Both the position numbers and the translations under genes were made by a program. DNA of 64,000 nucleotides from Escherichia coli (GTDB lineage Bacteria > Pseudomonadota > Gammaproteobacteria > Enterobacterales > Enterobacteriaceae): assembly GCF_003334815.1 (NCBI RefSeq), contig NZ_QOWO01000016.1; one strand, 5' to 3'. Positions 1,061 to 22,129 of the stretch are shown here, in pieces (positions within the stretch are counted from its first letter, which is position 1; each line of letters opens with the position of its first letter). Below the pieces are notes generated by a model that saw only the letters and a program-made list of their open reading frames with translations, made no database searches and was not told the DNA's origin.

Positions 1061-1071
1061 CTGAGGTAATT

Positions 1072-3123: not shown

Positions 3124-3137
3124 TCAGGAGAAATACG

Positions 3138-4343: not shown

Positions 4344-4350
4344 TCATTCA

Positions 4351-4370
4351 GGGGCGCGGAACCGCGCCCC
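4351..4370 (+). terminator. GC-rich stem-loop just after the capsid gene (possible partial terminator or RNA stabiliser)
   Basis: GGGGCGCGG-AA-CCGCGCCCC is a perfect 9-bp stem 8 nt after the capsid stop. The downstream T-run is weak (CTGTTCTG). Confidence 0.35.
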
Positions 4371-4392
4371 CTGTTCTGACGGGTGAAGAATC

Positions 4393-4593: not shown

Positions 4594-4595
4594 GT

Positions 4596-5326: not shown

Positions 5327-5798
5327 TGTTCAGCAGCCCGCGGAGATGCGCTTTAACCGCGCCCGTGTCCGGCGGGCGTTTGTCACGATTGGGCAGCGTC
5401 ATATGCGTGATGCCCGTCGGCTGGTGATGCGCCGTGCGCGGTCGGCACCAGGTGAAAACCCCGGTTATCAGACTGGACGCCTGGCTCGTTCGATTGGTTA
5501 CATGGTGCCGGGAGCCAGTAAAAAGCGAGCCGGTTTTATGACACGCATTGCCCCTAACCAGCGCAACGGGAGGGGGAACCGGATGATCTCTGGTGACTTC
5601 TATCCGGCGTTTCTGTTTTTTGGTGTCCGGGGAGGAGCAAAACGTCGTCGCAGTCATCATCGTGGTGCATCCGGTGGCAGCGGCTGGCGACTGGCTCCAC
5701 GTAATAACTTCATGGTGGAAACGCTTGAAAAGAACCGCAGCTGGACACGCTATTTTCTGGCGCGGGAATTGCGTAAATCACTGAAGCCGGAGCGATGA
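5301..5798 (+). CDS. HK97 gp10-like neck/tail-attachment protein
   Basis: 165-aa Arg-rich ORF. The ...NPGYQTGRLARSIGY... motif resembles the HK97 gp10 family TG.L..SI motif. Position is after the head closure gene. Confidence 0.5.
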   Translation: MATPFFHVDVQQPAEMRFNRARVRRAFVTIGQRHMRDARRLVMRRARSAPGENPGYQTGRLARSIGYMVPGASKKRAGFMTRIAPNQRNGRGNRMISGDFYPAFLFFGVRGGAKRRRSHHRGASGGSGWRLAPRNNFMVETLEKNRSWTRYFLARELRKSLKPER

Positions 5799-6364
5799 CG
5801 CAGATGAAACTGACGCCTGTTATTGCTGCGCTGCGTGCCCGCTGCCCGTATTTTGAAAACCGGGTGGCAGGTGCGGCACAGTTCAAAAATCTGCCGGAGG
5901 TCGGAAAGCTGAAACTCCCGGCGGCGTATGTGGTACCGGGTGATGACTCTCCTGGAGAAAACAAAAGCCAGACCGACTACTGGCAGGAGCTGAAAGAGGG
6001 CTTCTCCGTGGTTGTCATACTGAGTAACGGGCGTGATGAGCGCGGTCAGTTTGCCTCGTATGATGTGGTGGACGATGTCCGGCAGATGCTCTTTAAGGCC
6101 CTGCTGGGCTGGAACCCGGAAGCGTGCGGTAACCCGATTACCTATGACGGCGGCACGCTGCTGGATCTGAATCGTCATGAGCTGATTTATCAGTTCGATT
6201 TTTCGGTCATCAGCGAGCTGACCGAAGATGATACCCGCCAGCAGGATGATCTGAACAGTCTGGATGAACTGCAAACGCTGGCGATTGATGTTGATTATCT
6301 CGAGCCCGGTAACGGGCCTGACGGCGATATCGAACATCACACCGAAATAACCCTTCCTTCCTGA
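5795..6364 (+). CDS. Mu gp37-like virion protein (neck / tail terminator region)
   Basis: 189-aa ORF with ATGA overlap to the upstream gene, lying just before the sheath gene cluster. Assignment is by position and vague recollection only. Confidence 0.45.
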   Translation: MTQMKLTPVIAALRARCPYFENRVAGAAQFKNLPEVGKLKLPAAYVVPGDDSPGENKSQTDYWQELKEGFSVVVILSNGRDERGQFASYDVVDDVRQMLFKALLGWNPEACGNPITYDGGTLLDLNRHELIYQFDFSVISELTEDDTRQQDDLNSLDELQTLAIDVDYLEPGNGPDGDIEHHTEITLPS

Positions 6365-6372
6365 GGATCCTC

Positions 6373-6543
6373 ATGTTTGTCAAACCTGTTAAAGGGCGGT
6401 CAGTGCCTGACCCTGCCCGCGGCGACCTTTTGCCCGCCGAAGGGCGAAATGTTGACGAGAACAACTACTGGCTGCGCCGTGAAGCAGCGGGTGATATCCG
6501 GCGCGTGAATAAAAAGGTGAACACCGATGACGATAAGCTTTAA
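6373..6543 (+). CDS. small Mu-like protein upstream of sheath (DUF2635-like), not in the supplied ORF track (<60 aa)
   Basis: My translation gives ATG 6373 to TAA 6541-6543, product MFVKPVKGRSVPDPARGDLLPAEGRNVDENNYWLRREAAGDIRRVNKKVNTDDDKL (56 aa). GAGGA SD lies 4 nt upstream. The ORF overlaps the sheath start, and a protein of this type precedes sheath genes in Mu-like tails. Confidence 0.55.
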   Translation: MFVKPVKGRSVPDPARGDLLPAEGRNVDENNYWLRREAAGDIRRVNKKVNTDDDKL

Positions 6544-8023
6544 CTCCATTCCGTCGAATACGCTGGTTCCGCTGTTTTATGCGGAAATGGATAACCAGGC
6601 GGCGAATACTGCACAGGACAGCGGAGCATCGCTGCTGATTGGTCATGCCAGTAACGGTGCAGAGATTGTTGCCAACAGTCTGGTACTGATGCCGTCGGCA
6701 GACTATGCACGCCAGATTTGTGGTGCGGGAAGTCAGCTGGCGCGTATGGTCGAGGCTTATCGCCAGACTGACCCGTTTGGCGAGCTGTATGTGATTGCCG
6801 TTCCTGAATCCACGGGCGCGGCGGCAACGGTTACGCTGACGGTGACCGGGGCGGCAACCGAAACCGGCACGGTGAATGTGTATGTGGGACGTACCCGCGT
6901 GCAGGCACCGGTGACTAACGGCGATAACGTCACGATGATTGCCAGCAGTATCCAGGATGCCATCAATGCCGTTCCGACCCTGCCGTTTACGGCTTCATCT
7001 TCGGCAGGCGTGGTCACACTGACCGCGCGTCATAAGGGGCTTTGCGGGAATGAAATTCCTGTCAGCCTCAATTACTACGGCTTTGGTGGGGGCGAAGTGC
7101 TGCCAGCGGGCGTACAGATTGCCGTGGCGACGGGTACCGCCGGAACGGGTGCTCCGGTTCTCACCGGCGCGGTGGCTGCAATGGCGGATGAGCCGTTTGA
7201 TTATATCGGCCTGCCGTTCAACGACACGGCCTCCGTTAACACGCTGGTGACCGAGATGAACGATACCAGCGGTCGCTGGAGCTATGCGCGTCAGCTGTAT
7301 GGTCATGTGTATACGGCAAAGATCGGCACGCTGTCAGAACTGGTGACCGCAGGTGACCAGTTTAACCAGCAGCACATTACCCTGGCGGGATACGAAAAAG
7401 AGACCCAGACGCCTGCCGACGAGCTGGTGGCAAGCCGTACCGCCCGCGCAGCGGTGTTTATTCGCAACGATCCGGCACGTCCCACGCAGACCGGTGAGCT
7501 GGTGGGTATGCTGCCTGCGCCGAAGGGGAAACGGTTCACGATGACCGAGCAGCAGACCCTGCTGTCTCATGGCGTGGCAACGGCGTATGTCGAAAGCGGG
7601 GTGCTGCGCATTCAGCGTGATGTCACCACGTACAGGAAAAACGCTTACGGTGTTGCGGATAACAGCTACCTCGACAGCGAGACGCTGCATACCAGCGCGT
7701 ATGTGCTGCGCAAACTGAAATCCGTCATTACCAGTAAGTACGGGCGTCACAAGCTTGCCAGCGACGGTACCCGCTTTGGCCCCGGTCAGGCGATTGTCAC
7801 ACCGGCGGTGATCAAAGGGGAACTGCTGGCAACCTACCGTCAGCTTGAGCGTGCGGGGATCGTGGAAAACTACGAACTGTTTAAGCAGTACCTGGTTGTG
7901 GAGCGTGATGCCAGCGATCCGAACCGCCTGAACACGCTGTTCCCGCCTGACTATGTTAACCAGTTGCGTGTCTTTGCCGTGGTTAACCAGTTCCGTCTTC
8001 AGTATTCAGAGGAGTCTGCATAA
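6527..8023 (+). CDS. contractile tail sheath protein (Mu gpL-like)
   Basis: 498-aa ORF followed by tube, chaperone and tape-measure genes in the canonical order for contractile tails. Confidence 0.85.
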   Translation: MTISFNSIPSNTLVPLFYAEMDNQAANTAQDSGASLLIGHASNGAEIVANSLVLMPSADYARQICGAGSQLARMVEAYRQTDPFGELYVIAVPESTGAAATVTLTVTGAATETGTVNVYVGRTRVQAPVTNGDNVTMIASSIQDAINAVPTLPFTASSSAGVVTLTARHKGLCGNEIPVSLNYYGFGGGEVLPAGVQIAVATGTAGTGAPVLTGAVAAMADEPFDYIGLPFNDTASVNTLVTEMNDTSGRWSYARQLYGHVYTAKIGTLSELVTAGDQFNQQHITLAGYEKETQTPADELVASRTARAAVFIRNDPARPTQTGELVGMLPAPKGKRFTMTEQQTLLSHGVATAYVESGVLRIQRDVTTYRKNAYGVADNSYLDSETLHTSAYVLRKLKSVITSKYGRHKLASDGTRFGPGQAIVTPAVIKGELLATYRQLERAGIVENYELFKQYLVVERDASDPNRLNTLFPPDYVNQLRVFAVVNQFRLQYSEESA

Positions 8024-8379
8024 TGGCCCGTATCGGGGGAACCTGTTATTTCAAAATTGACGGTCAGCAGCTATCGCTGACCGGCGGCATTGAGGTGCCC
8101 ATGAACAGGACGGTCAATGATGACATCATCGGCCTGGACGGTTCAGTGGACCGCAAGGAAACTCACCGTGCGCCTTATGTCAAAGGGACCTTCAAGGTGC
8201 CGAAGAATTTTCCGGTGAGCAAAATCACCTCGTCTGATGAGATGACCATCACTGCCGAGCTGGCGAACGGTCAGGTCTATGTACTGTCGTCCGCCTGGCT
8301 GCACGGCGAAGCGAACCATAATGCCGAAGAAGGTACGGTTGATCTTGAGTTCCACGGTGAAGAAGGGGATTACCAGTAA
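8023..8379 (+). CDS. tail tube protein (Mu gpM-like)
   Basis: 118-aa ORF whose start overlaps the sheath stop (TAATG). Canonical position and size. Confidence 0.8.
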   Translation: MARIGGTCYFKIDGQQLSLTGGIEVPMNRTVNDDIIGLDGSVDRKETHRAPYVKGTFKVPKNFPVSKITSSDEMTITAELANGQVYVLSSAWLHGEANHNAEEGTVDLEFHGEEGDYQ

Positions 8380-8648
8380 TGAAAGAGCTTGAGTTAAAGA
8401 AACCGATTACTGCTCATGGCGAGACACTCTCCGTACTGGAGTTTGATGAACCCACCGGGAAGGACGTCCGCGAGCTGGGGTATCCCTACCAGATGAATCA
8501 GGATGAGTCAGTCAGACTTCTGGCGCATGTGGTGTCGAAATACATTGTGCGGCTGGCGAAAGTGCCGCAAAGCTCTGTCGACCAGATGTCTCCGGCAGAC
8601 CTGAATGCAGCGGCGTGGCTTGTGGCCGGTTTTTTCCTCCAGGCCTGA
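8379..8648 (+). CDS. tail assembly chaperone (short, zero-frame product)
   Basis: 89-aa ORF between tube and tape measure. Carries the slippery heptamer T TTT TTC near its 3' end. Confidence 0.75.
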   Translation: MKELELKKPITAHGETLSVLEFDEPTGKDVRELGYPYQMNQDESVRLLAHVVSKYIVRLAKVPQSSVDQMSPADLNAAAWLVAGFFLQA

Positions 8649-8797
8649 CGGCTGAATACCTCACTGATCGCTTCTTTGACTGCGCCAGCTACTGGCGCAT
8701 TAATCCTTTCGAATTGCTGAATATGCCGATCAGTGAAATTCCCTTGCTGGTCAGTCAGGCAAACAGGATAGAGCAGGAGAAACGCACACATGGCTGA
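8379..8797 (+). CDS. tail assembly chaperone, long product made by programmed -1 frameshift at 8630-8636
   Basis: The -1 frame (ORF track 8615..8797) is open from the slippery site to 8797. Predicted fusion is ...AAWLVAGFF/PPGLTAEYLTDRFF...EQEKRTHG, ending 8 nt inside the tape-measure gene. Analogous to lambda G/GT and P2 E/E'. Confidence 0.6.
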
Positions 8798-10625
8798 ATT
8801 TGAGCTTAAGGCGTTGATCACCGGTGTCGACAGGCTTTCTCCCGCGCTGTCGAAAATGCAAAAGAAAATCCGGGGATTTAAACGCCAGGCGGAAGAAGCG
8901 TCACAGGGGGGGCTGGCGCTTGGTGGCGGACTGGCAGCGGGTCTGACGCTTTCCCTGAAATCTTATGCCGATCAGGAAAACGCTGCCACCGGGCTGAAAG
9001 TCGCCATGATGGATGCGAACGGCGAGGTTGGAAAGCGCTTTCAGGACATCAATAAACTGGCTATTGGCCTGGGTAACCAGCTACCCGGTACAACGGCTGA
9101 TTTCCAGAACATGATGCAGATGCTGGTGCGTCAGGGGATCCCGGCAGAAAACATTCTTGGCGGTGTGGGTAAAGCGACAGCTTATCTTGCGGTACAACTG
9201 AAAAAAACACCGGAAGCGGCTGCCGAGTTTGCCGCAAAGATGCAGGATGCTACCGGAACGGCGTCAGAAGACATGATGGGGCTGTTCGACACAATTCAGA
9301 AGGCGTTTTATCTGGGCGTTGACGATACCAACATGTTGTCCTTCTTCACTAAAACCAGCTCTGTTCTGAAGATGGTGAACAAGGACGGTCTTCAGGCTGC
9401 ACAGAGCCTTGCCCCCATCAGCGTCATGATGGATCAGATGGGGATGAACGGGGAGTCGGCAGGTAACGCCCTGCGAAAAGTTATCCAGTCCGGATTAAGC
9501 GTTAAGAAAATCAGGGACGTCAATAAAATCATGGCCCGCCAGAAACTCGGGGTACAGCTCGATTTTACTGACGGCAAAGGGAGTTTTGGCGGTCTTGATA
9601 ACATGTTCAGGCAACTGGCAAAGCTGCGAAAACTGACCGACGTTAAACGAACTGGTGTACTTAAGGCAATATTTGGTGATGATGCTGAAACCCTTCAGGT
9701 GGTCAATGCGCTGATCGATAAAGGAAAGGATGGTTACGATCAGATCCAGCAGAAGATGAATAAACAGGCCAGCCTGAATAAACGTGTTCAGGCACAGCTT
9801 GGTACGCTGTCCAACCTGTGGGAGGCAATGACGGGGACCGCAACTAACGGTCTTGCAGCTATTGGCGGCGCATTTTCTGGTGACGCTAAAAATATCACGC
9901 AATGGCTGGGGGAGTTGGGGGAAAAATTCACGAAGTTTGCGGATGAAAATCCCCGGGTTATTCGCGGCGTCGTCGGGCTTGCTGCCGGTCTTGCGATTCT
10001 GAAACTGGGATTGATGGGCGTGGGCGGTGCCATCAGTATTGTCAGCAGGATCATGTCGATGACGCCGATTGGCATGATTGCGACGGCGATAGCCCTGGCT
10101 GCGGGATTAATTATCACTAACTGGGATGTTGTCGGACCTTATTTCAAGAAGCTCTGGGAAACCATTGGTCCTTATTTTGAGGCTGGCTGGGAACTCCTTA
10201 AGAAAGTTTTTGCCTGGTCGCCGCTGGGGATGGTGATCAATAACTGGGGGCCGGTTGTTAAGTGGTTTCAGGATATGTGGGACAAGCTGAAGCCAATTAT
10301 TGAGTGGTTTACCGACAGTTCCGGTGACACGGTCGATGCCATTAACTCTGCGCAGTGGGGCGCGGGTGCTTATGATGCTTATGGGACGGGAATACCGGCG
10401 CGGGGATACACACCTTATCCGGCGGTAGAGCCGGCTCAGTCAAACAACGCCTCCGATGCCACAGGCCCGAATCCCTTCATGATCAACAAAGCTTCTGCGC
10501 CAAAAGTTGATGGTGAGATCAAGGTCTCTTTTGTGAATTCGCCTCCGGGTATGCGGGTTATGGAAACGCGATCCAGCGGTTTTGATGTCAGCCATGATGT
10601 TGGCTATACGCGCTTTGGCAGGTAA
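8790..10625 (+). CDS. tail tape measure protein
   Basis: 611-aa ORF after the chaperone pair. Gly/Ala-rich hydrophobic central segments and an ...LPGTTADFQNMMQMLVRQG... core are typical of tape-measure proteins. Confidence 0.88.
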   Translation: MAEFELKALITGVDRLSPALSKMQKKIRGFKRQAEEASQGGLALGGGLAAGLTLSLKSYADQENAATGLKVAMMDANGEVGKRFQDINKLAIGLGNQLPGTTADFQNMMQMLVRQGIPAENILGGVGKATAYLAVQLKKTPEAAAEFAAKMQDATGTASEDMMGLFDTIQKAFYLGVDDTNMLSFFTKTSSVLKMVNKDGLQAAQSLAPISVMMDQMGMNGESAGNALRKVIQSGLSVKKIRDVNKIMARQKLGVQLDFTDGKGSFGGLDNMFRQLAKLRKLTDVKRTGVLKAIFGDDAETLQVVNALIDKGKDGYDQIQQKMNKQASLNKRVQAQLGTLSNLWEAMTGTATNGLAAIGGAFSGDAKNITQWLGELGEKFTKFADENPRVIRGVVGLAAGLAILKLGLMGVGGAISIVSRIMSMTPIGMIATAIALAAGLIITNWDVVGPYFKKLWETIGPYFEAGWELLKKVFAWSPLGMVINNWGPVVKWFQDMWDKLKPIIEWFTDSSGDTVDAINSAQWGAGAYDAYGTGIPARGYTPYPAVEPAQSNNASDATGPNPFMINKASAPKVDGEIKVSFVNSPPGMRVMETRSSGFDVSHDVGYTRFGR

Positions 10626-10649
10626 TGAAAAATTAATCTGTTAATGAGT

Positions 10650-10670
10650 CCCACTCCGGTGGGATTTTTT
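10650..10670 (+). terminator. short hairpin plus T-run between tape measure and gpN-like gene (possible attenuator)
   Basis: CCCAC-TCCG-GTGGG followed by ATTTTTT. The stem is only 5 bp. Confidence 0.3.
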
Positions 10671-10685
10671 ATGTACGGAGTTTAT

Positions 10686-12014
10686 ATGACGTGGAAAGAC
10701 AGACTTCAGGACGCGTCATTTCGCGGTGTGCCGTTTAAGGTTGAAGAAGAAAGTGCGGGAACCGGTCGCCGTGTGGAAACACATGAATACCCGAACCGCG
10801 ACAAACCCTATACCGAAGACCTGGGGAAAATCACTTTCCGCCCGTCCATCACGGCTTATGTGGTGGGAGATGACTGTTTTGACCAGCGCGATCGCCTGAT
10901 TGACGCGCTGAATAAACCCGGTCCCGGCACGCTTGTCCATCCGACATACGGTGAGCTGAAAGTCTGTGTTGACGGGGAAGTTCGGGTCAGCACATCGAAA
11001 AGTGAAGGACGTATTGTCCGCTTTGACCTGAAGTTTGTCGAAGCGGGAGAACTCTCTTACCCCACATCAGGTGCGGCGACGGCGCAGACGCTGATGTCAT
11101 CCTGTTCTGCACTGGATGACTGCATCAGTGACAGTTTCAGTAGTTTCAGTATCGATGGCGTGGCAGATTTTGTGCAGAACGACGTCGTCGGTAATGCCAG
11201 CACAATGCTTGGGTATGTTTCTGATGCGATGAAAGTGGTGGATTCTGCCGTATCGGATGCCGCCAGGCTGTTGCAGGGGGATATCTCGGTACTTCTGCCG
11301 CCGCCATCGTCAGGCAAAAATTTCGTTGAGCAGGTGCAGAAAATGTGGCGTACCGGGAAACGCCTTTATGGTAACGCCAGCGACCTGGTCACCATGATCA
11401 AAACGCTTTCCGGTGTCAGCCTCGGCAGCGATCTGCAACCGCGCGGCGTCTGGAAAACGGACAGTAAAACCACCGCCACGGCTACGCAGCAGCGTAACGT
11501 GGTTGCCAGCACCCTTCGTACGACCGCAATCAGCGAAGCGGCGTATGCCGTCACCCGATTGCCTGCGCCAACAACTTCCGCGGTGATGCAGAATGCCGCA
11601 GTGGGGCAGGCAACAACACCTGCGCAGAGCACTGGCTGGCCTTCCGTCACGCATCCGGCACTGAACAATGCACCGGCGGTGAAAAACACAGTTGACCTGC
11701 CGACGTGGGAAGAACTGACTGACATTCGCGACACACTGAATACGGCAATTGATAAGGAGTTGTCCCGTACAACCAGTGATGCGCTGTTTCTGGCGCTGCG
11801 CCGGGTGAAAGCAGATCTGAATGCGGATATCAACACGCGCCTTGAACAGTCTGCACGGATCATTCAGCGCACGCCGGATGAGGTTTTACCCGCGCTGGTG
11901 CTGGCGGCGACCTGGTTTGATAACGCGGCGCGTGACGCGGACATTATCCGGCGTAATGCCATTACGCATCCCGGCTTTGTGCCGGTGATCCCTCTGAAGG
12001 TGCCAGTGCAATGA
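10686..12014 (+). CDS. Mu gpN-like DNA circularisation / tail protein
   Basis: ORF 10644..12014. I prefer ATG 10686 (GGAG SD 6 nt upstream). The N-terminus MTWKDRLQDASFRGVPFKVEEESAGTGRRVETHEYPNRDKPYTEDLG matches the conserved Mu N N-terminal domain pattern. Confidence 0.82.
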   Translation: MTWKDRLQDASFRGVPFKVEEESAGTGRRVETHEYPNRDKPYTEDLGKITFRPSITAYVVGDDCFDQRDRLIDALNKPGPGTLVHPTYGELKVCVDGEVRVSTSKSEGRIVRFDLKFVEAGELSYPTSGAATAQTLMSSCSALDDCISDSFSSFSIDGVADFVQNDVVGNASTMLGYVSDAMKVVDSAVSDAARLLQGDISVLLPPPSSGKNFVEQVQKMWRTGKRLYGNASDLVTMIKTLSGVSLGSDLQPRGVWKTDSKTTATATQQRNVVASTLRTTAISEAAYAVTRLPAPTTSAVMQNAAVGQATTPAQSTGWPSVTHPALNNAPAVKNTVDLPTWEELTDIRDTLNTAIDKELSRTTSDALFLALRRVKADLNADINTRLEQSARIIQRTPDEVLPALVLAATWFDNAARDADIIRRNAITHPGFVPVIPLKVPVQ

Positions 12015-13090
12015 ACGATAACGTCACGCTACGGGTAAATGGCCGGGAGTGGAATGGCTGGACATCGGTGCGCATCGGTGCCGGTATTGAACGGCTGGCG
12101 CGGGATTTCAGTGTGGAGATCACTCGCCAGTGGCCGGGAGATGAGGGTATCACCACGCTTCAGCCGCGCATTAAAAACGGTTCAAAAGTGGAAGTGCTGA
12201 TTGGTGATGAGCTGGTGATCACCGGCTGGGTGGAGGCGACGCCCGTTCGGTACGATGCCCGTTCGGTCAGCACCGGTATTGCCGGACGCAGTCTGACGGC
12301 TGACCTGATTGACTGTGCAGCCGAACCGACACAGTTTAACGGACGCTCGCTGGTGCAGATTGCGCAGGCGCTTGCTGCGCCTTTCGGTATTGAGGTGGTG
12401 AACAGCGGTGCGCCGTCGGGTGTTATTCCTGATGTTCAGCCTGATCACGGTGAAACGGTGATTGAGGTAATCAACAAAATACTCGGTCAGCAGCAGGCGC
12501 TGGCTTACGACGACCCGCACGGCAGGCTGGTGATTGGCGGTATTGGCTCAACGCGGGCACATACCGCGCTGGTACTTGGGGAAAACATCCTTTCCTGTGA
12601 TACGGAGAAGAGTATCCGGGAGCGGTTTTCTGTTTACCAGGTGGCGGGGCAGCGTGCCGGAAACGACGATGATTTCGGTGAGGCCACCACCACCGCGCTG
12701 CGGGCCCGCACAGAGGACGCATTTATTGCCCGTTACCGTCCGATGTATATCAGGCAGACAGGGCAGGCTACGGGGGCAGGCTGTATTGCGCGTGCTGACT
12801 TTGAAGCCCGGCAACGGGCGGCGCGGACGGATGAAACCACCTATGTGGTGCAGGGCTGGCGACAGGGTAACGGTACGCTGTGGCAACCCAACCAGCGGGT
12901 GATTGTCTTTGATCCGGTCTGTGGTTTTGACAATACCGAACTGCTTGTTTCGGAAGTCACGTTTACTCAGGACCAGAACGGCACCCTGACGGAAATCCGT
13001 GTCGGCCCGCCTGATGCTTATCTGCCTGAACCTGAAGCCCCCGGCGCGCGGAAAAAGAAAAAAGCCAGAGTACAGGAGGACCCGTTCTGA
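12011..13090 (+). CDS. baseplate hub protein (Mu gpP / gp44-like)
   Basis: 359-aa ORF with ATGA overlap to the gpN-like gene. Order N-P-V-gp46-J-gp48 follows the Mu baseplate module. Confidence 0.78.
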   Translation: MNDNVTLRVNGREWNGWTSVRIGAGIERLARDFSVEITRQWPGDEGITTLQPRIKNGSKVEVLIGDELVITGWVEATPVRYDARSVSTGIAGRSLTADLIDCAAEPTQFNGRSLVQIAQALAAPFGIEVVNSGAPSGVIPDVQPDHGETVIEVINKILGQQQALAYDDPHGRLVIGGIGSTRAHTALVLGENILSCDTEKSIRERFSVYQVAGQRAGNDDDFGEATTTALRARTEDAFIARYRPMYIRQTGQATGAGCIARADFEARQRAARTDETTYVVQGWRQGNGTLWQPNQRVIVFDPVCGFDNTELLVSEVTFTQDQNGTLTEIRVGPPDAYLPEPEAPGARKKKKARVQEDPF

Positions 13091-13638
13091 TGAGGACGAT
13101 TGAAGCCATGCAGCGACAACTTCTCGGCCTGATTGGGCGGGCAGTGGTGAAAAGCATCAGTGCCGCCACGAAATGTCAGACCGTGGATGTGTCCCTGATT
13201 GCCGGTGAACCCAAAGCCGGGGTTGAACATCTTGAACCCTACGGTTTTACCGCAAGGGCAAACAGCGGTGCGGAAGCGGTGGTGTTGTTTCCGGATGGCG
13301 ACCGTTCTCATGCGGTGGTTGTTACGGTGTCGGACCGGCGCTACCGCCTGAAAGGGCTGCAGACGGGTGAGGTGGCTGTCTATGACGATCAGGGGCAGTC
13401 TGTGACGCTGACCCGGGAGGGGATCGTGGTGGACGGTGCAGGTAAAACGATCACGTTTCGCAATGCGCCCAGAGCACGTTTTGAAATGGACCTGGAAGTG
13501 ACCGGACAGGTGAAAGACCTGTGCGACTCCGGCGGCACCACCATGTCAGCGATGCGGCTTGCCTATAACGGCCATTGTCACAGAGAGAACGGTCAGGGCA
13601 GTAACACCGACAAACCGGATAAAGCGATGGAGGCATGA
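13090..13638 (+). CDS. baseplate assembly protein V / central spike (Mu gp45-like)
   Basis: 182 aa. The pattern ...VEHLEPYGFTARANSGAEAVVLFPDGDRSHAVVV... is typical of gpV-type OB-fold spikes. Confidence 0.8.
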   Translation: MRTIEAMQRQLLGLIGRAVVKSISAATKCQTVDVSLIAGEPKAGVEHLEPYGFTARANSGAEAVVLFPDGDRSHAVVVTVSDRRYRLKGLQTGEVAVYDDQGQSVTLTREGIVVDGAGKTITFRNAPRARFEMDLEVTGQVKDLCDSGGTTMSAMRLAYNGHCHRENGQGSNTDKPDKAMEA

Positions 13639-14063
13639 TGGAACTGTGGCTGACGGTGAACGGTAAACGCACCTGCGCCAGCGCACCGCTGGATCCGCTG
13701 ACCCGCGCCGTGGTGATTTCCCTGTTTACCTGGCGGCGGGCGGAGCCTGATGACAATGCCGACGTCCCGATGGGATGGTGGGGGGATACCTGGCCTGCGG
13801 TACAGAATGACCGTTACGGCTCCCGGCTGTGGCTGCTTCAGCGCGGCAAACTGACCAATCAGCTGGTGCAGACGGTAAGGGGGTATATCCGCGAATGCCT
13901 GCAATGGATGATTGATGACGGTGTGGTGTCCCGTATTGATCTGGATATCCGCCGCACCGGGATTAATGAACTGGGTAACAGTATCACTCTCTGGCGTCGT
14001 GACGGACCGGTAATGATTTCTTTTGATGATCTGTGGAGTGCGATAACGCATGGCGGACAGTGA
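13635..14063 (+). CDS. baseplate protein (Mu gp46-like / gpW-like)
   Basis: 142-aa ORF with overlapping start and stop, positioned between the V-like and J-like genes. Confidence 0.68.
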   Translation: MMELWLTVNGKRTCASAPLDPLTRAVVISLFTWRRAEPDDNADVPMGWWGDTWPAVQNDRYGSRLWLLQRGKLTNQLVQTVRGYIRECLQWMIDDGVVSRIDLDIRRTGINELGNSITLWRRDGPVMISFDDLWSAITHGGQ

Positions 14064-15108
14064 ATTTCAGCGCCCGACGCTGGCAGAAAATATCAGTATG
14101 CTCCGTAACGATTTATTCGCCAGGCTGGACGTCAGCGACACGCTCCGGCGCATGGATGAAGACGTGCGGGCAAAGGTGTATGCGGCGGCGCTGCATACGG
14201 TTTACGGTTACATCGATTATCTGGCAATGAACATGCTGCCTGACCTGTGCGATGAGTCCTGGCTGGCGCGACATGCTGCGATGAAACGGTGTCCGCGCAA
14301 GGGGGCCACGTCTGCCAGCGGGTATATGCGCTGGGAAGGTGTCAGCGATGGCCTGAAGGTGACCGCCGGGAGTGTTATTCAGCGCGATGACCTGGTTCAG
14401 TACACGGCAACTTCTGATGCAACCAGCTCAGGTGGAGTCCTGCGCGTGCCGATCGCCTGCTCAACTGCAGGCGCGGTCGGTAACGCTGACGACGGTACGG
14501 CATTAATCCTGGTCACGCCGGTGAATGGTCTGCCGTCTTCCGGTGTGGCAGATACCCTGACTGGCGGATTCGATACTGAAGATCTGGAAACGTGGCGCGC
14601 CCGCGTCATTGAGCGGTATTACTGGACGCCGCAGGGCGGGGCTGACGGGGACTATGTCGTCTGGGCTAAAGAAGTGCCCGGCATTACCCGCGCATGGACA
14701 TACCGTCACTGGATGGGAACGGGGACTGTCGGTGTGATGATTGCCGGCAGTGACCTGATTAATCCCATTCCGGAAGAATCAACGGAAACGGCGGCAAGAC
14801 AACATATCGGGCCACTGGCCCCGGTGGCAGGCTCTGATTTGTATGTGTTCAGGCCGGCGGCGCATACGGTGGATTTTCATATCCGCGTGACGCCGGACAC
14901 ACCAGAAATACGGGCTGCCATTACCGCGGAGTTGCGTTCGTTCCTGCTGCGTGATGGTTATCCGCAGGGAGAACTGAAGGTATCGCGTATCAGTGAGGCG
15001 ATTTCCGGTGCGAACGGGGAATACAGCCATCAGTTGCTTGCACCGGCGGACAATATCTCCATTGCAAAAAATGAACTGGCGGTTCTGGGGACGATTTCAT
15101 GGACGTGA
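14050..15108 (+). CDS. baseplate wedge protein (gpJ / Mu gp47-like)
   Basis: 352-aa ORF in the canonical position. Size fits the Baseplate_J family. Confidence 0.82.
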
Positions 15109-15683
15109 CAAACGATGATTACATCCGTCTGTTGTCGGCACTGCTGCCGCCCGGTCCGGCGTGGTCAGCCAGCGATCCGGCGATTGCCGGTACGGCACCG
15201 TCATTAACCCGTGTTCATCAGCGTGCGGATGCCCTGATGCGGGAGCTGGATCCGCGCACCACCACCGAACTGATAAACCGCTGGGAGCGTCTGTGCGGCC
15301 TGCCGGATGAATGTATTCCTACAGGGACACAGACCCTTCGCCAGCGCCAGCAACGGCTGGATGCGAAGGTTAACCTGTCGGGTGGCATCAACGAGGATTT
15401 TTATCTTGCACAGCTTGCTGCCCTGGGCAGACCAGATGCTACCATCACGCGATACGACAAAAGCACGTTCACCTGCTCATCGGCCTGTACTGACGCGGTG
15501 AATGCGCCGGAATGGCGGTATTACTGGCAGATCAACATGCCAGCCGCCACCAACACCACCTGGATGACATGTGGCGATCCCTGTGATTCCGCACTGCGTA
15601 TCTGGGGCGACACCGTTGTCGAATGTGTGCTTAACAAACTCTGCCCGTCGCATACCTACGTAATTTTTAAATATCCGGAGTAA
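15099..15683 (+). CDS. baseplate/tail protein YmfQ-like (Mu gp48, DUF2313)
   Basis: 194 aa, the same length and position as e14 YmfQ, directly upstream of the fibre gene. Confidence 0.78.
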
Positions 15684-15686
15684 TCC

Positions 15687-16367
15687 ATGCATCGTATAGA
15701 CACGAAAACCGCGCAGAAGGATAAGTTCGGCGCGGGTAAGAACGGTTTTACCCGTGGTAACCCCCAGACTGGCACGCCTGCCACCGATCTGGATGATGAC
15801 TACTTTGATATGTTGCAGGAAGAACTCTGCAGCGTGGTGGAGGCATCCGGTGCCAGCCTGGAGAAGGCGCGGCACGACCAGTTGCTTACCGCGCTTCGTG
15901 CGCTGCTGTTAAGCCGCAAGAATCCGTTTGGCGATATCAAATCGGATGGCACGGTGAAAACGGCTCTCGAAAACCTTGGTTTGGGAGAAGCGGCAACGAG
16001 GAACGTCGGAACGGATACCGGGCAAGTACCAGATATGAGTAGTTTTACAACGGGGTACTCTGGAGCAGCAGACTGGCCGAATAGTAAATCTGGATGGAGT
16101 AAGGGGCCGGATGGGGTAATTACACAATGGGGTATTTTCGGTTTCCCCGTTGGACAGACAGGGACGAATGTTGTTTTCCCGCTACCTTTCCCCGCGCGGG
16201 TCGAATCAATTACACTGACAATGGCAGATATCCAGGAGTCTCTGCTTTCTCCAGCAACCATGCCTGCTTATGGAGTTAACTCAACTGGTACTTCAAGAAC
16301 GGGTTTTACAGCCCGTATGTCAGGCGCCGGTGGGTTTAATCTTTGCTATATAGCGAAAGGGAGATAA
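15687..16367 (+). CDS. tail fibre protein: constant N-terminal part fused to currently expressed variable C-terminus (StfP/YcfK-like)
   Basis: 226-aa ORF that crosses the left invertase crossover site at 15964-15989 (...ALENLGLGE|AATRNVG...). Confidence 0.8.
15964..15989. promoter_or_regulatory. left crossover site for the Pin-family invertase (pix/gix/hix-type 26-mer)
   Basis: CTCTCGAAAACCTTGGTTTGGGAGAA. Its reverse complement TTCTCCCAAACC-AA-GGTTTTCGAGAG shares the first 14 nt and the central AA with the site at 17857-17882, in inverted orientation. Confidence 0.7.
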
Positions 16368-16371
16368 CAGA

Positions 16372-16815
16372 ATGAATAAAGTTAAAAGTGTTTACAGCCC
16401 GTCCGAAAATGCAATCTACAACGCAGCGCTATATGAAAGTTATATCAAGGAGGGGACATGGCCGCAGGATGGTATTGAAATCAGCGATGAGGATGCTGTC
16501 AGATTTAATGGGGGAAATAAGCCAACAGGAAAAATGCTGGGAATGGTTTCAGGGACCCTTGCATGGGTTGATGAGCCGCCGCTTTCACCAGAACAGAAAA
16601 TATCAGATGCAGAAAACATGAAAGCCACATTTCGTGCAAAAGCTGACAGTGAAATATCCTGGCGTCAGGATGCTGTTGATGCTGGTATCGCAACTGATGA
16701 AGAAACTTCAACTCTCACCCAATGGAAGAAATACCGTGTGCTGCTGATGCGTGTTGATACTTCAACAGCACCCGATATTGAATGGCCTACGCCTCCGGCA
16801 GTCCAGGCCAGATGA
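16372..16815 (+). CDS. tail fibre assembly protein (for the currently expressed fibre variant)
   Basis: 147-aa ORF 4 nt after the fibre stop. The C-terminus ...WKKYRVLLMRVDTSTAPDIEWPTPP is the conserved Tfa chaperone tail. Confidence 0.8.
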   Translation: MNKVKSVYSPSENAIYNAALYESYIKEGTWPQDGIEISDEDAVRFNGGNKPTGKMLGMVSGTLAWVDEPPLSPEQKISDAENMKATFRAKADSEISWRQDAVDAGIATDEETSTLTQWKKYRVLLMRVDTSTAPDIEWPTPPAVQAR

Positions 16816-17389
16816 CGTCCGGCGCTGTGCTGGTATCTGTTGCCGTCACCGCGTCAATGTAATCCAGCACGGCGTTAAGTCGGGTTGTTTCTGCCGGCGT
16901 CAACTTCCGTCCGGCCTGTAATTTCAACTGAATCAGACTGATGGAAGCCATTGCAGCATCAATCAGATACTGGCGCTGTGCTTCTGCCGCTTCTACTGCG
17001 GCGCTATGCTGTGCCTCAGTATCCGTCACCCATTTCTCACCATCCCATTTATCGTATGGCGTTAATGGGGCGATAGTGGTTGTATTATCAGGGTAATCAC
17101 CCGGAGCTGTGATTTCTTTGGCGTCTCCCGTTTCGGTGCTATAGACAATTTCACCACGATGGTCTGACACATATTCCCATGATTTTAAATCCATAGAACG
17201 GCAGATAGCATAACCCGCCTTATATGTGCCAGGTTCATCCAGACAGGAATATGCAGGGATACCGACACCAATGGCAAGATATTCATTTGAAGTAGAAATA
17301 TATTCCCGAGTTTTACCATCATAGTTATAGACGGTAATATTCCCCGCCTTCGTGGCAATAAGCTCGCTATTTAATACGGCGTTATCCAT
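16787..17389 (-). CDS. tfaE: tail fibre assembly protein TfaE-like (silent orientation)
   Basis: 200 aa, near-identical as I recall to K-12 e14 TfaE (MDNAVLNSELIA.KAGNITVYNYDG.TREYISTSNEYLA...). Convergent with the other tfa gene, overlapping it by 29 nt. Confidence 0.88.
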   Translation of the reverse strand: MDNAVLNSELIATKAGNITVYNYDGKTREYISTSNEYLAIGVGIPAYSCLDEPGTYKAGYAICRSMDLKSWEYVSDHRGEIVYSTETGDAKEITAPGDYPDNTTTIAPLTPYDKWDGEKWVTDTEAQHSAAVEAAEAQRQYLIDAAMASISLIQLKLQAGRKLTPAETTRLNAVLDYIDAVTATDTSTAPDVIWPGLPEA

Positions 17390-17882
17390 TATGCAGCCCT
17401 CACGATATAGTTAAATGCAATATTTCGTGGACGGGTTTCACTCCCGCCAGTATTACCGATACTCCCTCGTGAATGAAGTGTCGGTGATGGGATCAGACTC
17501 CCTCCTGTATTTGTGGCATCAAGTCCCCGTCCTTGTGTGTATGTCTTTTTGAAAATCGTAGCCAGTTCCCATTCATCTTTTGTGTCGTAACCATCATTGG
17601 CAACAACAATATGGCGGTGTTTTTCCAGCATCCCTGTCTGAATGCTCAATAAAACACGTCCTGCATCAATACCGCGCCCGTCATCCCAGCCACGAATAAA
17701 CTCACCACGTAAATCAGGCAATTTATTTGTCGGATAAGCCTTTGCCAGTTCCGGGTATTCTTCAGCAGAAAAAGCCGCACCGTTGCATTTCAGCCAGCCT
17801 GTTGGCGGTGTGGCTGAAGGCCATGGAACAGGCACACCAACAGGTAATGCAGAGCCTTCTCCCAAACCAACGTTTATGAAAA
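17389..17882 (-). CDS. stfE: promoterless alternative tail-fibre C-terminal cassette (StfE-like, collar-type receptor-binding domain)
   Basis: The open frame enters from the right crossover site (...GLGE|GSALPVGVPVPWPSATPPTGWLKCNGAAFSAEEYPELAKAY...PDLRGEFIRGWDDGRGID...ETRPRNIAFNYIVRAA). The MMPFARYF... start in the track lies outside the segment and is not a real N-terminus. Confidence 0.78.
17857..17882. promoter_or_regulatory. right crossover site for the Pin-family invertase
   Basis: TTCTCCCAAACC-AA-CGTTTATGAAAA: two imperfect 12-bp half-sites around a central AA, matching the architecture of Din-family sites. Confidence 0.7.
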
Positions 17883-17936
17883 TGCAGAAATAACGAGCAA
17901 ATGGCATCATTCCTGCTTTTGTCAGGGAGATCTACT

Positions 17937-18491
17937 ATGCTTATTGGCTATGTACGTGTGTCAACAAATGACCAGAACACAGATCTACAACGTAATGCGC
18001 TGAACTGTGCAGGATGCGAGCTGATTTTTGAAGACAAGATAAGCGGTACAAAGTCCGAAAGGCCGGGACTGAAAAAACTGCTCAGGACATTATCGGCAGG
18101 TGACACTCTGGTTGTCTGGAAGCTGGATCGGCTGGGGCGTAGTATGCGGCATCTGGTCATTCTGGTTGAGGAGTTGCGCGAACGTGGCGTTAATTTTCGC
18201 AGCCTGACGGATGCTATTGATACCAGCACACCGATGGGGCGTTTTTTCTTTCATGTGATGGGTGCCCTGGCTGAAATGGAACGAGAACTGATTGTTGAAC
18301 GAACAAAAGCTGGACTGGAAGCTGCTCGCGCACAGGGACGAATTGGGGGACGTCGTCCCAAACTTACACCAGAACAATGGGCGCAGGCCGGGCGATTAAT
18401 TGCATCAGGCGTTCCTCGCCAGAAGGTGGCGATCATCTATGATGTTGGTGTATCGACACTGTATAAGAAGTTTCCGGTCGGAGATAAATGA
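17937..18491 (+). CDS. pin: serine DNA invertase (Pin/Gin/Cin/Hin family)
   Basis: MLIGYVRVSTNDQNTDLQRNAL... contains the catalytic Ser motif, with a C-terminal HTH. Near-identical to e14 PinE as I recall. I prefer ATG 17937 (GGGAGA SD) over the 17901 start in the track. Confidence 0.93.
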   Translation: MLIGYVRVSTNDQNTDLQRNALNCAGCELIFEDKISGTKSERPGLKKLLRTLSAGDTLVVWKLDRLGRSMRHLVILVEELRERGVNFRSLTDAIDTSTPMGRFFFHVMGALAEMERELIVERTKAGLEAARAQGRIGGRRPKLTPEQWAQAGRLIASGVPRQKVAIIYDVGVSTLYKKFPVGDK

Positions 18492-18590
18492 AACCGCAGG
18501 CTCGTCGTATGCAAGAAAGTGCTGCGGCTGGCTGGTTAACTTCCGATAGTGAGAGTATTGAATGATTTCCAGTCGTTATCGATTTTACGT
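18489..18590. repeat. 102-bp direct repeat, copy R1 (abuts the pin stop codon)
   Basis: TGAAACCGCAGGCTCGTCGTATGCAAGAAAGTGCTGCGG...GATTTTACGT. About 95/102 identical to 21774-21875 by hand alignment. Confidence 0.85.
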
Positions 18591-18785: not shown

Positions 18786-18814
18786 TTGAAAAAAAACGAA
18801 AATAGATTAACAAT
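18786..18814 (+). promoter_or_regulatory. candidate sigma70 promoter of the AT-rich cassette
   Basis: TTGAAA (18786-18791), 17-nt spacer, AACAAT (18809-18814), ~35 nt upstream of ATG 18850. In AT-rich DNA such matches arise easily. Confidence 0.3.
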
Positions 18815-18849
18815 GTTCAGAAGAAACCTTCATAATAGAAGAGGTATAA

Positions 18850-19104
18850 ATGGGTAAGATTATTCGGTGGATGCTTTTTTTTGTCGGATTATTTTCCGTT
18901 GCATATTCAATATATAAATATCAACAATCTCCGCAGAGTTTATTTTACATAATCGGTGCTATAGGAACACTTTTATCTGCTACATGTGGTTTACTTGAGA
19001 TAAAAAGCAAGAAATCGAATGGCAGTATAACTGCTGGCGACAACTCAAATATCGTTGTCATTAATGGTTCAGAAAACACATCAAAAATAAAAAATAGAGG
19101 GTGA
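18850..19104 (+). CDS. small two-TM membrane protein with polar GDNSN-motif tail (unknown function)
   Basis: 84-aa ORF with GAAGAGG SD 6 nt upstream. Hydrophobic helices at about residues 6-22 and 31-50. Very AT-rich codon usage. Its stop overlaps the next gene's start region. Confidence 0.65.
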   Translation: MGKIIRWMLFFVGLFSVAYSIYKYQQSPQSLFYIIGAIGTLLSATCGLLEIKSKKSNGSITAGDNSNIVVINGSENTSKIKNRG

Positions 19105-19106
19105 TT

Positions 19107-20042
19107 ATGTTTGATAAAGAGGTTAACTTAGGAGACAACTCAAACGTAGTAAAAACAGAAGGGAATAACAACACAACAATAATAAATAATTTTGATGAGA
19201 AGTTTATAGGTCACGTTGTAAGATCCATGCTTTATGAAAGTATGCCTTCCTTTCAAGAAGAAGCTAGAAAAAAGATAATTGCGTCAACTGATGAATACAT
19301 TAGAGAGCTAATATCTGAGTTAGTAATTCAAAAAACAGATGCAGATACATTAAACCAAAAACTATCAACGCCTGACGTTCAATACTCTCTTTTTGAATCA
19401 GCTAAATGTTTTGCAAAAAATCCAGAAAGAACAGCAAAATCAACTCTGTTAAATTTAGTTGTAAAAAAAATAAATGAATTGGATGGAGATCATGAAGAGC
19501 TTTCCTCTATCGATCTGGCAATAAACGTCGCTACAAAACTTAGCGTAAAGCAAATAAGGTATATATCTTTAATATACTATATTAAAGATATTGTAAAAAT
19601 ATCACAAGATAGTGCCGGCGCTTATTGCATAATAGATCCTTCAAAAGATACAACAGAAGAAGTTGACGATTTCTTTTTATTCCCAAATGATATAAAAAGG
19701 AACAAGCAGGATGTTTATGATCTTTATATCGATCTATATAACAATCAAATGGATGTTGTATTTAAAGATGAAGAGATTGGCCCAGTTGATTATAGTATGC
19801 TTATAGCATTGGGTTGTATCATTCAACCTGCATTCCCTCAGCGAACATTTGTACAAAATGTAAAGAAAAGAACAGGATTAGATTTAAACGACAGCGAACA
19901 AAAATTAAAGCTATCGACATTCATTGAGAAAATAGAAAAAGCTATAGAGATAGATTCTGTCGATTATATAGTATTAACTACGGTTGGTAGACAAATAGCT
20001 AACGCCTATATATCAACAAGAATGAGATTAGTTAACTTATAA
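19107..20042 (+). CDS. hypothetical soluble protein (~311 aa) with N-terminal GDNSN-motif; possible LPO_1073/Vpar_1526-like family (unverified recollection)
   Basis: Long ORF (track 19101..20042, GTG). I prefer ATG 19107 with AGAGGG SD 6 nt upstream. No TM segment. Followed by a strong terminator. Confidence 0.75.
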   Translation: MFDKEVNLGDNSNVVKTEGNNNTTIINNFDEKFIGHVVRSMLYESMPSFQEEARKKIIASTDEYIRELISELVIQKTDADTLNQKLSTPDVQYSLFESAKCFAKNPERTAKSTLLNLVVKKINELDGDHEELSSIDLAINVATKLSVKQIRYISLIYYIKDIVKISQDSAGAYCIIDPSKDTTEEVDDFFLFPNDIKRNKQDVYDLYIDLYNNQMDVVFKDEEIGPVDYSMLIALGCIIQPAFPQRTFVQNVKKRTGLDLNDSEQKLKLSTFIEKIEKAIEIDSVDYIVLTTVGRQIANAYISTRMRLVNL

Positions 20043-20063
20043 ATATCTCATATTTCTTCATCC

Positions 20064-20100
20064 AAGGTGGTGGCTTCATCATCCACCGCCTTCTTTTCTG
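20064..20100 (+). terminator. rho-independent terminator of the AT-rich cassette
   Basis: AAGGTGGTGG-cttcatcat-CCACCGCCTT (10-bp stem with one G-U pair) followed by CTTTTCTG, 22 nt after the stop codon. Confidence 0.6.
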
Positions 20101-20103
20101 CTC

Positions 20104-20250
20104 TTAAGAGTAGTGAACAAACCACTCGTCAGCAAACTCCCAAGTATCTTTCAGAGTCTCCTGAACAAAAGCCTTAGCAGAATCCTTATCTGCGGTGTAC
20201 GTAACAGGAAAATCATCGCTATGGTAGCTTTGACGCTCACCCCCATACCA
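20104..20250 (-). pseudogene. truncated DinI-like gene remnant (C-terminal ~45 codons, no start)
   Basis: Minus-strand translation is ...[37 protein letters not shown], which parallels the C-terminus of the intact gene at 21881-22129 (...[33 protein letters not shown]). There is no in-frame ATG, and an upstream in-frame stop lies at 20266-20268. Confidence 0.7.
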
Positions 20251-20445: not shown

Positions 20446-20805
20446 ATGTTAACGCCGTTTGGTAAGACAGTAAGAAAAATGCGCATAGACTTGGGGCTTA
20501 CGCTTAAAAGCATGGCTGAGGCTATGGGCATGACCTCGTCTTATCTTTCAGCGATCGAAACTGGTAAAAGGGCGGTCACTAAGCCCGTGCTTGATAGCAT
20601 CATTAGCTATTTTAATGCGGATGAAAAACAAAAAGAAAAGCTTATCAGTGCAGCTCGTGACTCTCAGCAGTCAGTAGAGATCAGCTTGTCAGGTAAGAAT
20701 GGCCACGCTCGTGAAGTCGCAATTGCGTTCGCTCGTAGTTTTGATGAATTAAATGAAGAAGACTTCCGTAATTTACGACAGATTTTGAATCGAAAACAGC
20801 AGTAG
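20446..20805 (+). CDS. XRE-family helix-turn-helix transcriptional regulator
   Basis: 119 aa. The N-terminus FGKTVRKMRIDLGLTLKSMAEAMGMTSSYLSAIETGKRAVT is a classic Cro/C1 HTH. GGAGAAG SD upstream. Confidence 0.85.
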   Translation: MLTPFGKTVRKMRIDLGLTLKSMAEAMGMTSSYLSAIETGKRAVTKPVLDSIISYFNADEKQKEKLISAARDSQQSVEISLSGKNGHAREVAIAFARSFDELNEEDFRNLRQILNRKQQ

Positions 20806-20813
20806 GAGGCGGC

Positions 20814-21335
20814 TTGAGCGGACAAGATTATCGTGTACCTCCGCAGAATCGTGAATCAATACGTTCTATCGTCACATCTCTGCGGAGCGCATTTGGTATT
20901 ACTGGGCTTAAATTCCCTGTAATGGAGGTAATTGAGTTCGCATTGCCTCAGTTGATCCCGGATTTTGAGTTCCACATTGGTGGCATGAAAGAAATGGGAG
21001 AAACGCATGGTCTTACGTACCCACAGGAACATTTATTGATTCTGCGCGAAGACATTTACGAAGGCGCTTTGAATGGGGTAGGGCGAGATAGGATGACTGC
21101 CGCGCATGAATTGGGTCATCTTCTTATGCACAGGAACATCGCATTTGCTCGTTCTGCCCCAGGGGTAAAAATCCGCCCTTTTGAGAGTAGTGAATGGCAA
21201 GCTAAATGTTTTAGTGGTGAGTTATTAGTGCCGGCTATGCATGTCAGTATTTTAAAAGGTATGACGGCTGAGGATGTTGCTAAGGCATGCGGAGTTTCAT
21301 TAGTGGCAGCGCGTTATCAGCTAGACAGAATGTAA
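20814..21335 (+). CDS. ImmA/IrrE-family zinc metallopeptidase (COG2856-type, HEXXH)
   Basis: 173 aa. Contains ...MTAAHELGHLLMH... (HEXXH) plus a downstream E (FSGELLVP). TTG start at 20814 with AGGAGG at 20804-20809, which overlaps the XRE stop and implies coupling. Confidence 0.82.
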   Translation: MSGQDYRVPPQNRESIRSIVTSLRSAFGITGLKFPVMEVIEFALPQLIPDFEFHIGGMKEMGETHGLTYPQEHLLILREDIYEGALNGVGRDRMTAAHELGHLLMHRNIAFARSAPGVKIRPFESSEWQAKCFSGELLVPAMHVSILKGMTAEDVAKACGVSLVAARYQLDRM

Positions 21336-21880: not shown

Positions 21881-22129
21881 TTAGTGAACAAACCACTCGT
21901 CAGCAGACTCCCAGGTATCTTTCAGAGTTTCCTGAACAAAAGTTTTAGCTGAATCTTTATCGGCGGTGCGCGTAACAGAAAGGCCATCGTTGCTGGTGGC
22001 TTTTACGATCACCTCTACATCGTCATAACGCTTACTGATGCGTCGAGTTAATTCTTCCTTTAACGCATCCACAGCACCGTTTGGCATTTTAGTCATTTTC
22101 TCTTTAGCTATGCAGATCTCAATACGCAT
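21881..22129 (-). CDS. DinI-family DNA-damage-inducible protein (prophage-encoded)
   Basis: 82 aa, [11 protein letters not shown]...[16 protein letters not shown]. Same length class and C-terminal motif as E. coli DinI. Two LexA boxes lie immediately upstream. Confidence 0.88.

Follow-up and report, generated by a model that had tools for sequence, protein, structure and literature searches.

What do two small adjacent genes in an unusually AT-rich part of an Escherichia coli prophage do for their host, and how might their products work together? The genes lie at positions 18786-20100 of a 64,000-nucleotide window (the whole stretch of DNA that was analysed, from contig NZ_QOWO01000016.1), and we refer to their products as A and B. 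An earlier interpretation made from the letters alone, here called the sequence-only reading, had proposed that they form a self-contained and undescribed anti-phage unit, carried as prophage cargo after a pinE-type invertase. The picture of a self-contained defence cargo has been borne out, and defence has been shown experimentally for identical proteins. The unit is not undescribed, however; it is already known as a defence system from a 2025 preprint by Nagy, Gersabeck, Conte and Whiteley, where it is PD-T2-1 (bioRxiv 10.1101/2025.07.02.662641 = PMC12236752). The window translations of A and B are identical to the RefSeq products WP_075861856.1 and WP_087894771.1, and WP_075861856.1 is the ECOR03 PD-T2-1A of that study; the accession of PD-T2-1B is printed there one digit short, as WP_08789477.1. 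Judged by these protein matches, the two-gene unit is almost certainly PD-T2-1, the same operon as in ECOR03, with identical protein sequences and no difference in its genes.

PD-T2-1 was identified in ECOR03 through transposon mapping and then confirmed in MG1655. Among suppressors of T7 gp17 toxicity in ECOR03, 28 of 48 transposon insertions fell in the operon, and the operon alone, expressed from its native promoter in MG1655, protected more than 100-fold against T2 and T6; with the same construct, protection was approximately 10-fold against T4 and T5 and absent against T7. Growth arrest by T7 gp17, or by T2 gp37, gp34 or gp12, occurred only when the operon was present. These tail-fibre triggers were expressed from plasmids inside the cell, and transposon hits in the operon relieved the arrest (bioRxiv 10.1101/2025.07.02.662641). 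Nagy et al. judged the PD-T2-1 sequences uninformative and without homology, and left the mechanism open; the words "motif" and "amyloid" are absent from the preprint text, and the shared motif that we describe here is not mentioned in it (bioRxiv 10.1101/2025.07.02.662641). Our literature search found no further paper that mentions PD-T2-1.

The sequences of the pair do hold one distinctive feature: as read from the translations, the last approximately 23 residues of A and the first approximately 25 of B are the same Gly/Asn/Gln-rich motif. The copy in A comprises residues G58-I80 (GSITAGDNSNIVVINGSENTSKI; 19021..19089, + strand) and the copy in B residues K4-I26 (KEVNLGDNSNVVKTEGNNNTTII; 19116..19184, + strand). 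The two align in register, with 11 of 18 positions identical between the motif regions of the window pair, and MAFFT placed A tails onto B heads in alignment. Residues G9, T17, G19 and N22 of the B head are invariant in 10 homologues, down to 35% identity, and nearly all members of the protein family to which B belongs start with a version of the motif (family consensus KDKQSQKVGDNSNAIQAGGDVNIT). Its composition is enriched in G (3.1-fold), Q (2.6-fold) and N (2.1-fold) and depleted in L, P and aromatic residues, a bias broadly like that of bacterial amyloid signalling motifs (bioRxiv 10.1101/2020.01.06.895854), with the exception that K is not depleted here. In AlphaFold2 (AF2) models of B and of a natural fusion, P0011, the motif is predicted to be disordered in the monomer. 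The sequence-only reading had noticed the GDNSN-type N-terminus of B and missed that the same motif ends A, which is the most informative feature of the pair.

Protein B (311 aa, soluble; 19107..20042, + strand) is a member of the LPO_1073/Vpar_1526 family (NF045477, PF28206), as judged by profile matches. Its score against NF045477 is 85.9 bits, with a curated cut-off of 45 and an E-value of 3.3e-24, which confirms the family named in the sequence-only reading; homologues of B at 34-90% identity carry PF28206 (Vpar_1526) in precomputed annotation. The NCBIfam profile alignment is limited to B residues 39-163 (profile positions 12-132 of 257), and the C-terminal half of the enterobacterial subfamily has diverged from that profile. 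To our knowledge, the family name conveys no function. The family is large, with 673 representative clusters at E <= 0.001 in a profile search of 1.84 billion representatives, and a PD-x-Q sequence and further positions are invariant throughout it. The AF2 model of B has a mean predicted local distance difference test score (pLDDT) of 82.8; over residues 30-311 the fold is largely helical and includes a small sheet, and pLDDT falls below 50 over residues 1-26. No solved structural relative was found for the globular domain of approximately 280 residues. The sequence-only reading had seen neither a transmembrane (TM) segment nor a catalytic motif in B, and this agrees with our searches: B has no TM segment, no NTPase, TPR or PIN match and no catalytic signature, nothing matched it in the local Pfam copy or PADLOC, and structural comparison added none. 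Across PADLOC, PHROGs and the local Pfam copy, nothing informative was returned for either A or B, with the sole exception of phrog_19542, whose function is unknown.

Protein A (84 aa; 18850..19104, + strand) is a membrane protein with hydrophobic segments at approximately residues 4-22 and 31-49, followed by an Asn/Ser/Gly-rich tail, as indicated by hydropathy; we place its C-terminal approximately 23 residues, with the motif, in the cytoplasm. The two hydrophobic helices and polar tail described by the sequence-only reading are therefore present, and the preprint predicted one TM segment in PD-T2-1A (bioRxiv 10.1101/2025.07.02.662641). No Pfam or NCBIfam match to A rose above threshold.

Is the pairing of such a membrane protein with a Vpar_1526 protein general? 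The family-wide alignment is too diverse to locate loci; two family loci were found in a genome-collection scan and one in a viral scan, and none was found in phage records. The neighbourhoods examined came from a Logan assembly, a Pantoea plasmid, a Vibrio genome, Methylobacter, a Metabacillus metagenome-assembled genome (MAG), an E. coli P2-type element and 63 metagenome loci. At 64 of 67 evaluable loci, the family gene is preceded on the same strand by a gene for a small membrane protein with a motif tail, such that the synteny of the two genes, which the sequence-only reading had set as a check on its proposal, extends to other genomes. These upstream partners are approximately 61-116 residues long with one or two hydrophobic segments, and the pairs come from Enterobacterales, a Vibrio genome, Methylobacter, a Metabacillus MAG and metagenomes. 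Among the 54 pairs that passed strict criteria, the intergenic gap ranges from -35 to +16 nt, and 39 of the 54 partner proteins have, like A, two segments of approximately 19 residues by hydropathy.

The two copies of the motif co-vary between partners. In a set of 23 non-redundant pairs, tail-versus-head alignment scores averaged 49.0 for cognate pairs, compared with 34.3 for non-cognate pairs and 21.3 +/- 5 when the residues of the tails were shuffled, and the observed sum of cognate scores was reached by none of 20,000 partner permutations. Cognate copies share 9.5 of 25 positions on average and non-cognate copies 6.7. The correspondence can be seen by eye in tail/head combinations such as SQNIQVNGN/SQNIQINGN, LQAGRDI/IQAGRDI and IQVGRD/LQVGGD.

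Several individual loci depart from the common arrangement. Single-helix partners (L009, 1588-1773; L070 and L077; P0071 and P0141) share an N-terminal stretch of the form W-I/L-x-x-N-K/R-E-W-I/V-F-S-G-I/V-G, which is conserved across a Firmicute MAG and metagenome loci; this suggests, from sequence, a membrane module distinct from the two-helix type of the window. At L044 (976-1500), the membrane-protein gene lies approximately 300 nt upstream of the family gene, and the intervening DNA contains degenerate copies of a B head and an A tail, resembling the remains of a duplicated and decayed motif region. A Pantoea vagans plasmid (L019, NZ_CP014128.2, 2143-2826) carries a decayed family gene in which the motif has been replaced by unrelated sequence and from which the partner gene is absent.

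Natural fusions show how the parts can be combined. In P0011, P0141 and P0158, a TM segment, two copies of the motif and the Vpar_1526 domain follow one another in one chain, and in P0043 and P0075 the TM segment and the domain are joined by a single motif copy. Elsewhere the domain is preceded by other heads: HNH-like in P0094 and P0168 (the profile matches of P0168 being weak), a weak Mrr-like nuclease match in P0105, and DUF4062 in P0152. Because the same domain is joined to interchangeable heads and membrane segments, we take B to be the sensor and A to be the effector at the membrane.

Some further details of these relatives can be recorded here. In some Vpar_1526-domain proteins, the HNH-like, weak Mrr-like or DUF4062 head takes the place of a separate membrane partner. 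P0094 has a motif-like stretch, TQTGNNSTINVYNG, between its HNH-like head and the domain. P0133 and P0156 may also be HNH-headed, a reading drawn solely from their sequence resemblance to P0094.

Taking these features together, we propose that PD-T2-1 is a defence system in which B would sense infection, A would act on the membrane and the motif common to both would be the device that couples them, an overall explanation to which we assign a probability of roughly 0.55. The globular domain of B may sense a tail-fibre signal, either directly or via a host intermediate. Activated B would then cluster, and its disordered heads could combine into a beta-sheet, cross-beta-like nucleus that recruits or templates the tails of A. 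The membrane helices of A would be clustered as a result, compromising the inner membrane and leading to growth arrest or abortive infection. We infer the sensor role of B, the effector role of A and, above all, the templating step. Coupling of A to B through the shared motif, as judged from its sequence, is probable; that this coupling is templated and amyloid-like, and not a fixed tether, is suggested by analogy and can be put forward only tentatively. Tentative, too, is the general form of the proposal, in which PD-T2-1 would be the first tested member of a large unrecognised two-gene class of approximately 670 representative clusters at 50% identity. In this class, a Vpar_1526 sensor would switch on a membrane effector of one or two helices through the templated, amyloid-like assembly of a shared motif of 20-25 residues.

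A number of observations weigh against this interpretation. The misprinted accession leaves the B half of the identification resting on gene adjacency and the exact match of A. AlphaFold3 gave an interface predicted template modelling score (ipTM) of 0.5 or lower for A, B and gp17 in any combination (bioRxiv 10.1101/2025.07.02.662641), and our AF2 model of the fusion P0011 shows no pairing of its motif copies, residues 62-121 having a pLDDT of 24-31; the latter is a weak test, as MAFFT had aligned A tails onto the B head in the input. The retention of both motif copies in some fusions fits a fixed structural beta-unit as well as it fits templating. The enterobacterial variant of the motif has Lys and Glu within the predicted strands. 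At the DNA level, the window contains a 14-nt direct repeat (19036-19049 and 19131-19144, 95 nt apart), and gene conversion between these two short repeats could partly maintain the similarity of cognate copies. Finally, T7 gp17 has no match to the motif when a motif profile is compared with all T7 reading frames, a search in which reverse-strand decoys ranked top. Direct seeding or mimicry by the trigger, considered as a separate idea, thus finds no sequence support in T7 gp17.

The main rival to templating is a fixed tether, in which the motif copies would pair in a stable heteromeric beta-sheet and hold B at the membrane permanently via A, and activation would be a conformational change of this pre-formed complex. 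Such a tether would explain the pairing and the co-variation equally well, and the single-chain fusions P0011, P0141 and P0158, which combine membrane segment and domain with both copies of the motif, indicate that the copies can work in cis. However, neither AlphaFold3 in the preprint nor AF2 here predicts a contact between A and B or between motif copies in cis, the relatives P0043 and P0075 have a single motif copy after the membrane segment, and a motif that is G/N/Q-rich, poor in Pro and Leu and disordered in the monomer has the character of assembly on demand. We regard the fixed tether as rather unlikely.

Two other explanations assign the roles differently. B could itself be a toxic effector with an unrecognised enzymatic or binding activity, and A its anchor, regulator or antitoxin-like partner. 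The invariance of PD-x-Q and other positions across the family, together with a fold for which no solved relative was found, leaves room for such an activity; nevertheless, the lack of a catalytic signature and of any Pfam, PADLOC or structural match makes this improbable, as does the finding that relatives join the same domain to membrane segments or to existing effector modules (HNH-like, weak Mrr-like, DUF4062), as expected of a sensor. Alternatively, the membrane protein could block adsorption or DNA entry without any intracellular sensing. Superinfection exclusion was among the readings raised from sequence, and a small membrane protein beside prophage tail-fibre genes is a common layout for it, yet tail-fibre proteins made from plasmids within the cell trigger the arrest and transposon hits in the operon relieve it (bioRxiv 10.1101/2025.07.02.662641), and we consider exclusion at the membrane very improbable.

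Our preferred reading, in which a motif couples a sensing B to a membrane-acting A, has precedents among known systems. The closest is Bab/Agp of E. coli ECOR25, an abortive-infection system with an amyloid signalling motif, BASS11, that is common to its small membrane-targeting protein and its large sensor; there, defence is lost when beta-breaker mutations are introduced, and assembly follows infection and depends on the sensor (bioRxiv 10.1101/2024.11.07.622273). As in PD-T2-1, the gene for the small membrane-targeting protein is directly followed by that for a larger cytoplasmic protein, and the first protein ends, and the second begins, with one short motif rich in G, N and Q. Both systems are cargo of prophages or defence hotspots, and both arrest growth when activated. 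In contrast, the putative effector of PD-T2-1 consists of two hydrophobic helices and not a Bell-type helical domain, and the spacing of its conserved residues appears unlike the positions quoted for BASS11, a comparison made by description only. The Bell/NLR pairs, which use BASS1-10 motifs (Dyrka et al., bioRxiv 10.1101/2020.01.06.895854), and the fungal HET-S/NWD2 pair are similar in having adjacent collinear genes, with the tail of the effector and the head of the receptor sharing a motif of approximately 20-25 residues. That motif has a high content of G, N and Q and a low content of P and L, and it co-varies between partners. PD-T2-1 differs from them in having neither an NB-ARC or NACHT NTPase nor a Bell or HeLo domain. 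In addition, Bell/NLR pairs occur mainly in filamentous Actinobacteria and Cyanobacteria, whereas the Vpar_1526 family occurs in unicellular Gammaproteobacteria and other bacteria.

Measured against the features by which amyloid-signalling pairs are recognized, A and B have adjacent collinear genes, a shared motif of at least 15 residues, and cognate similarity, and the motif is predicted to be disordered, with abundant G, N and Q and few P and L residues; they have no Bell or HeLo effector and no NLR (NB-ARC/NACHT) or TGP receptor. PD-T2-1 thus resembles amyloid-signalling pairs in layout, but it belongs to neither the Bell/NLR nor the Bab/Agp family, since the domains of those families are absent from A and B.

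The claim that the unit is a defence system adds nothing new, as it is already in the literature; what is added is the shared, co-varying motif, which makes the mechanism left open by the discoverers directly testable. If the proposed mechanism is correct, PD-T2-1 would gain a mechanism, and if the motif is a templating switch, the very short list of bacterial amyloid-signalling systems would grow by several hundred clusters, with an effector of approximately 60-100 residues that would be among the simplest known. Amyloid signalling would then reach beyond NLR/Bell and Bab/Agp pairs, with sensor and effector both of a new kind and with hosts that are mostly unicellular. Relatives with HNH, Mrr or DUF4062 heads would, on the same condition, identify the Vpar_1526 domain as a transferable sensor of phage, possibly one that responds to the assembly of tail fibres.

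The layout of the unit is compact. Open reading frame 1 (ORF1; 18850-19104, + strand) encodes 84 aa and ORF2 (19107-20042, + strand) encodes 311 aa when counted from its ATG; an alternative in-frame GTG start at 19101 would give 313 aa, and RefSeq annotates the starts of both frames identically in four E. coli genomes. The arrangement that the sequence-only reading took for translational coupling is present, with the ORF1 stop TGA at 19102-19104, the ORF2 ATG at 19107 after a gap of 2 nt, and a GAGG-type Shine-Dalgarno sequence upstream of both starts. The drop in G+C content that it had estimated by eye is likewise real: 31.6% over 18786-20100, compared with 52.5% for the whole window and 54.8% for positions 1-18500, and its count of 16 G+C among the 60 letters of 19141-19200 was exact on recount.

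At the downstream end of the unit, the strong terminator seen in the sequence-only reading has held up. This predicted intrinsic terminator (20064..20100, + strand) comprises a hairpin at 20064-20092, whose 10-bp stem includes one G-U pair and closes a loop of 9 nt, and then a U-rich tract (CUUCUUUUCU). The folding energy of the 76-nt stretch is -21.5 kcal/mol (z = -5.8), a value equalled by 0 of 200 shuffles. A pattern scan for terminators missed the hairpin because its 9-nt loop exceeds the 8-nt loop limit of the scan. The terminator sits between gene B and a dinI-like remnant, which converge on it, and a dinI-like gene ends at the equivalent position in the four complete genomes that carry the unit.

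The upstream signals are less distinct. The proposed promoter, TTGAAA-17-AACAAT at 18786-18814, is present as a site with 9 of 12 consensus matches, and a second candidate, TTAACA-18-CATAAT at 18807-18836, overlaps it with 10 of 12; together they delimit a candidate sigma-70 promoter region (18786..18836, + strand) defined by consensus matches only. The site does not stand out above chance, with seven promoter-like sites in the unit compared with 7.6 +/- 2.7 in shuffles. A promoter upstream of the unit is plausible, and sequence alone does not establish it; the PD-T2-1 operon functions from its native promoter in MG1655, where the position of the promoter was not mapped (bioRxiv 10.1101/2025.07.02.662641).

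The unit is cargo of a prophage with Mu-type tail genes, occupying a slot between the pinE invertase and a dinI-like gene beside prfC. Upstream lie genes for a DNA circularization protein, baseplate, tail fibre and tail-fibre assembly, followed by the pinE-type invertase at 17901-18491; the downstream neighbours are a dinI-like gene and prfC. Among 5426 complete E. coli genomes, the unit occurs in only four, at 99.9% identity, and there dinI and prfC come directly after it. The window differs from these four genomes in having an additional 1.7-kb module between the operon and dinI/prfC, which is found in 13 other genomes. The module begins with a C-terminal dinI-like remnant (20110-20232, - strand; 73% identical to the intact copy over 40 aa), continues with a helix-turn-helix (HTH) gene (20446-20805, + strand) and an ImmA/IrrE M78 peptidase gene (20814-21335, + strand), and is followed by the intact dinI-like gene (21881-22129, - strand). 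The HTH and ImmA/IrrE genes together resemble capH/capP (20446-21335; PADLOC 3.6e-10 and 4.9e-11). A role for this pair as regulator of the unit is not favoured: it is absent from the four genomes with the unit, it is found, together with the dinI remnant, behind different cargo, and in MG1655 the operon of two genes is enough by itself.

Other E. coli elements carry different or related cargo. In E. coli 510016 (L085, NZ_CP025851.1, 1962-4638), the slot holds an RT_UG17 (DRT-class) reverse transcriptase gene and a SLATT-domain gene disrupted by IS1, and behind them come the dinI remnant, HTH/ImmA pair, dinI and prfC that the window also has; the position therefore acts as a swappable slot for defence cargo. 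A divergent PD-T2-1-like pair (81 aa and 285 aa) is present in an E. coli P2-type element (L020, NZ_CP148400.1, 1690-5858), between replication gene A/dinI and the portal gene, where it adjoins three genes that match the PADLOC models Hp1, Hp2 and Hp3 over their full length; the head of its family protein is FSDKQKQQIGNNSYAIQAGNNVNV.

The tail-fibre genes beside the invertase also vary in arrangement. In the otherwise collinear genomes L001 and L002, the tail-fibre/assembly segment (5039-7208) has opposite order and orientation, and the window diverges from L001 exactly at this segment, to the left of approximately 17856. On sequence comparison, the flip is consistent with Pin-mediated inversion of a host-range segment.

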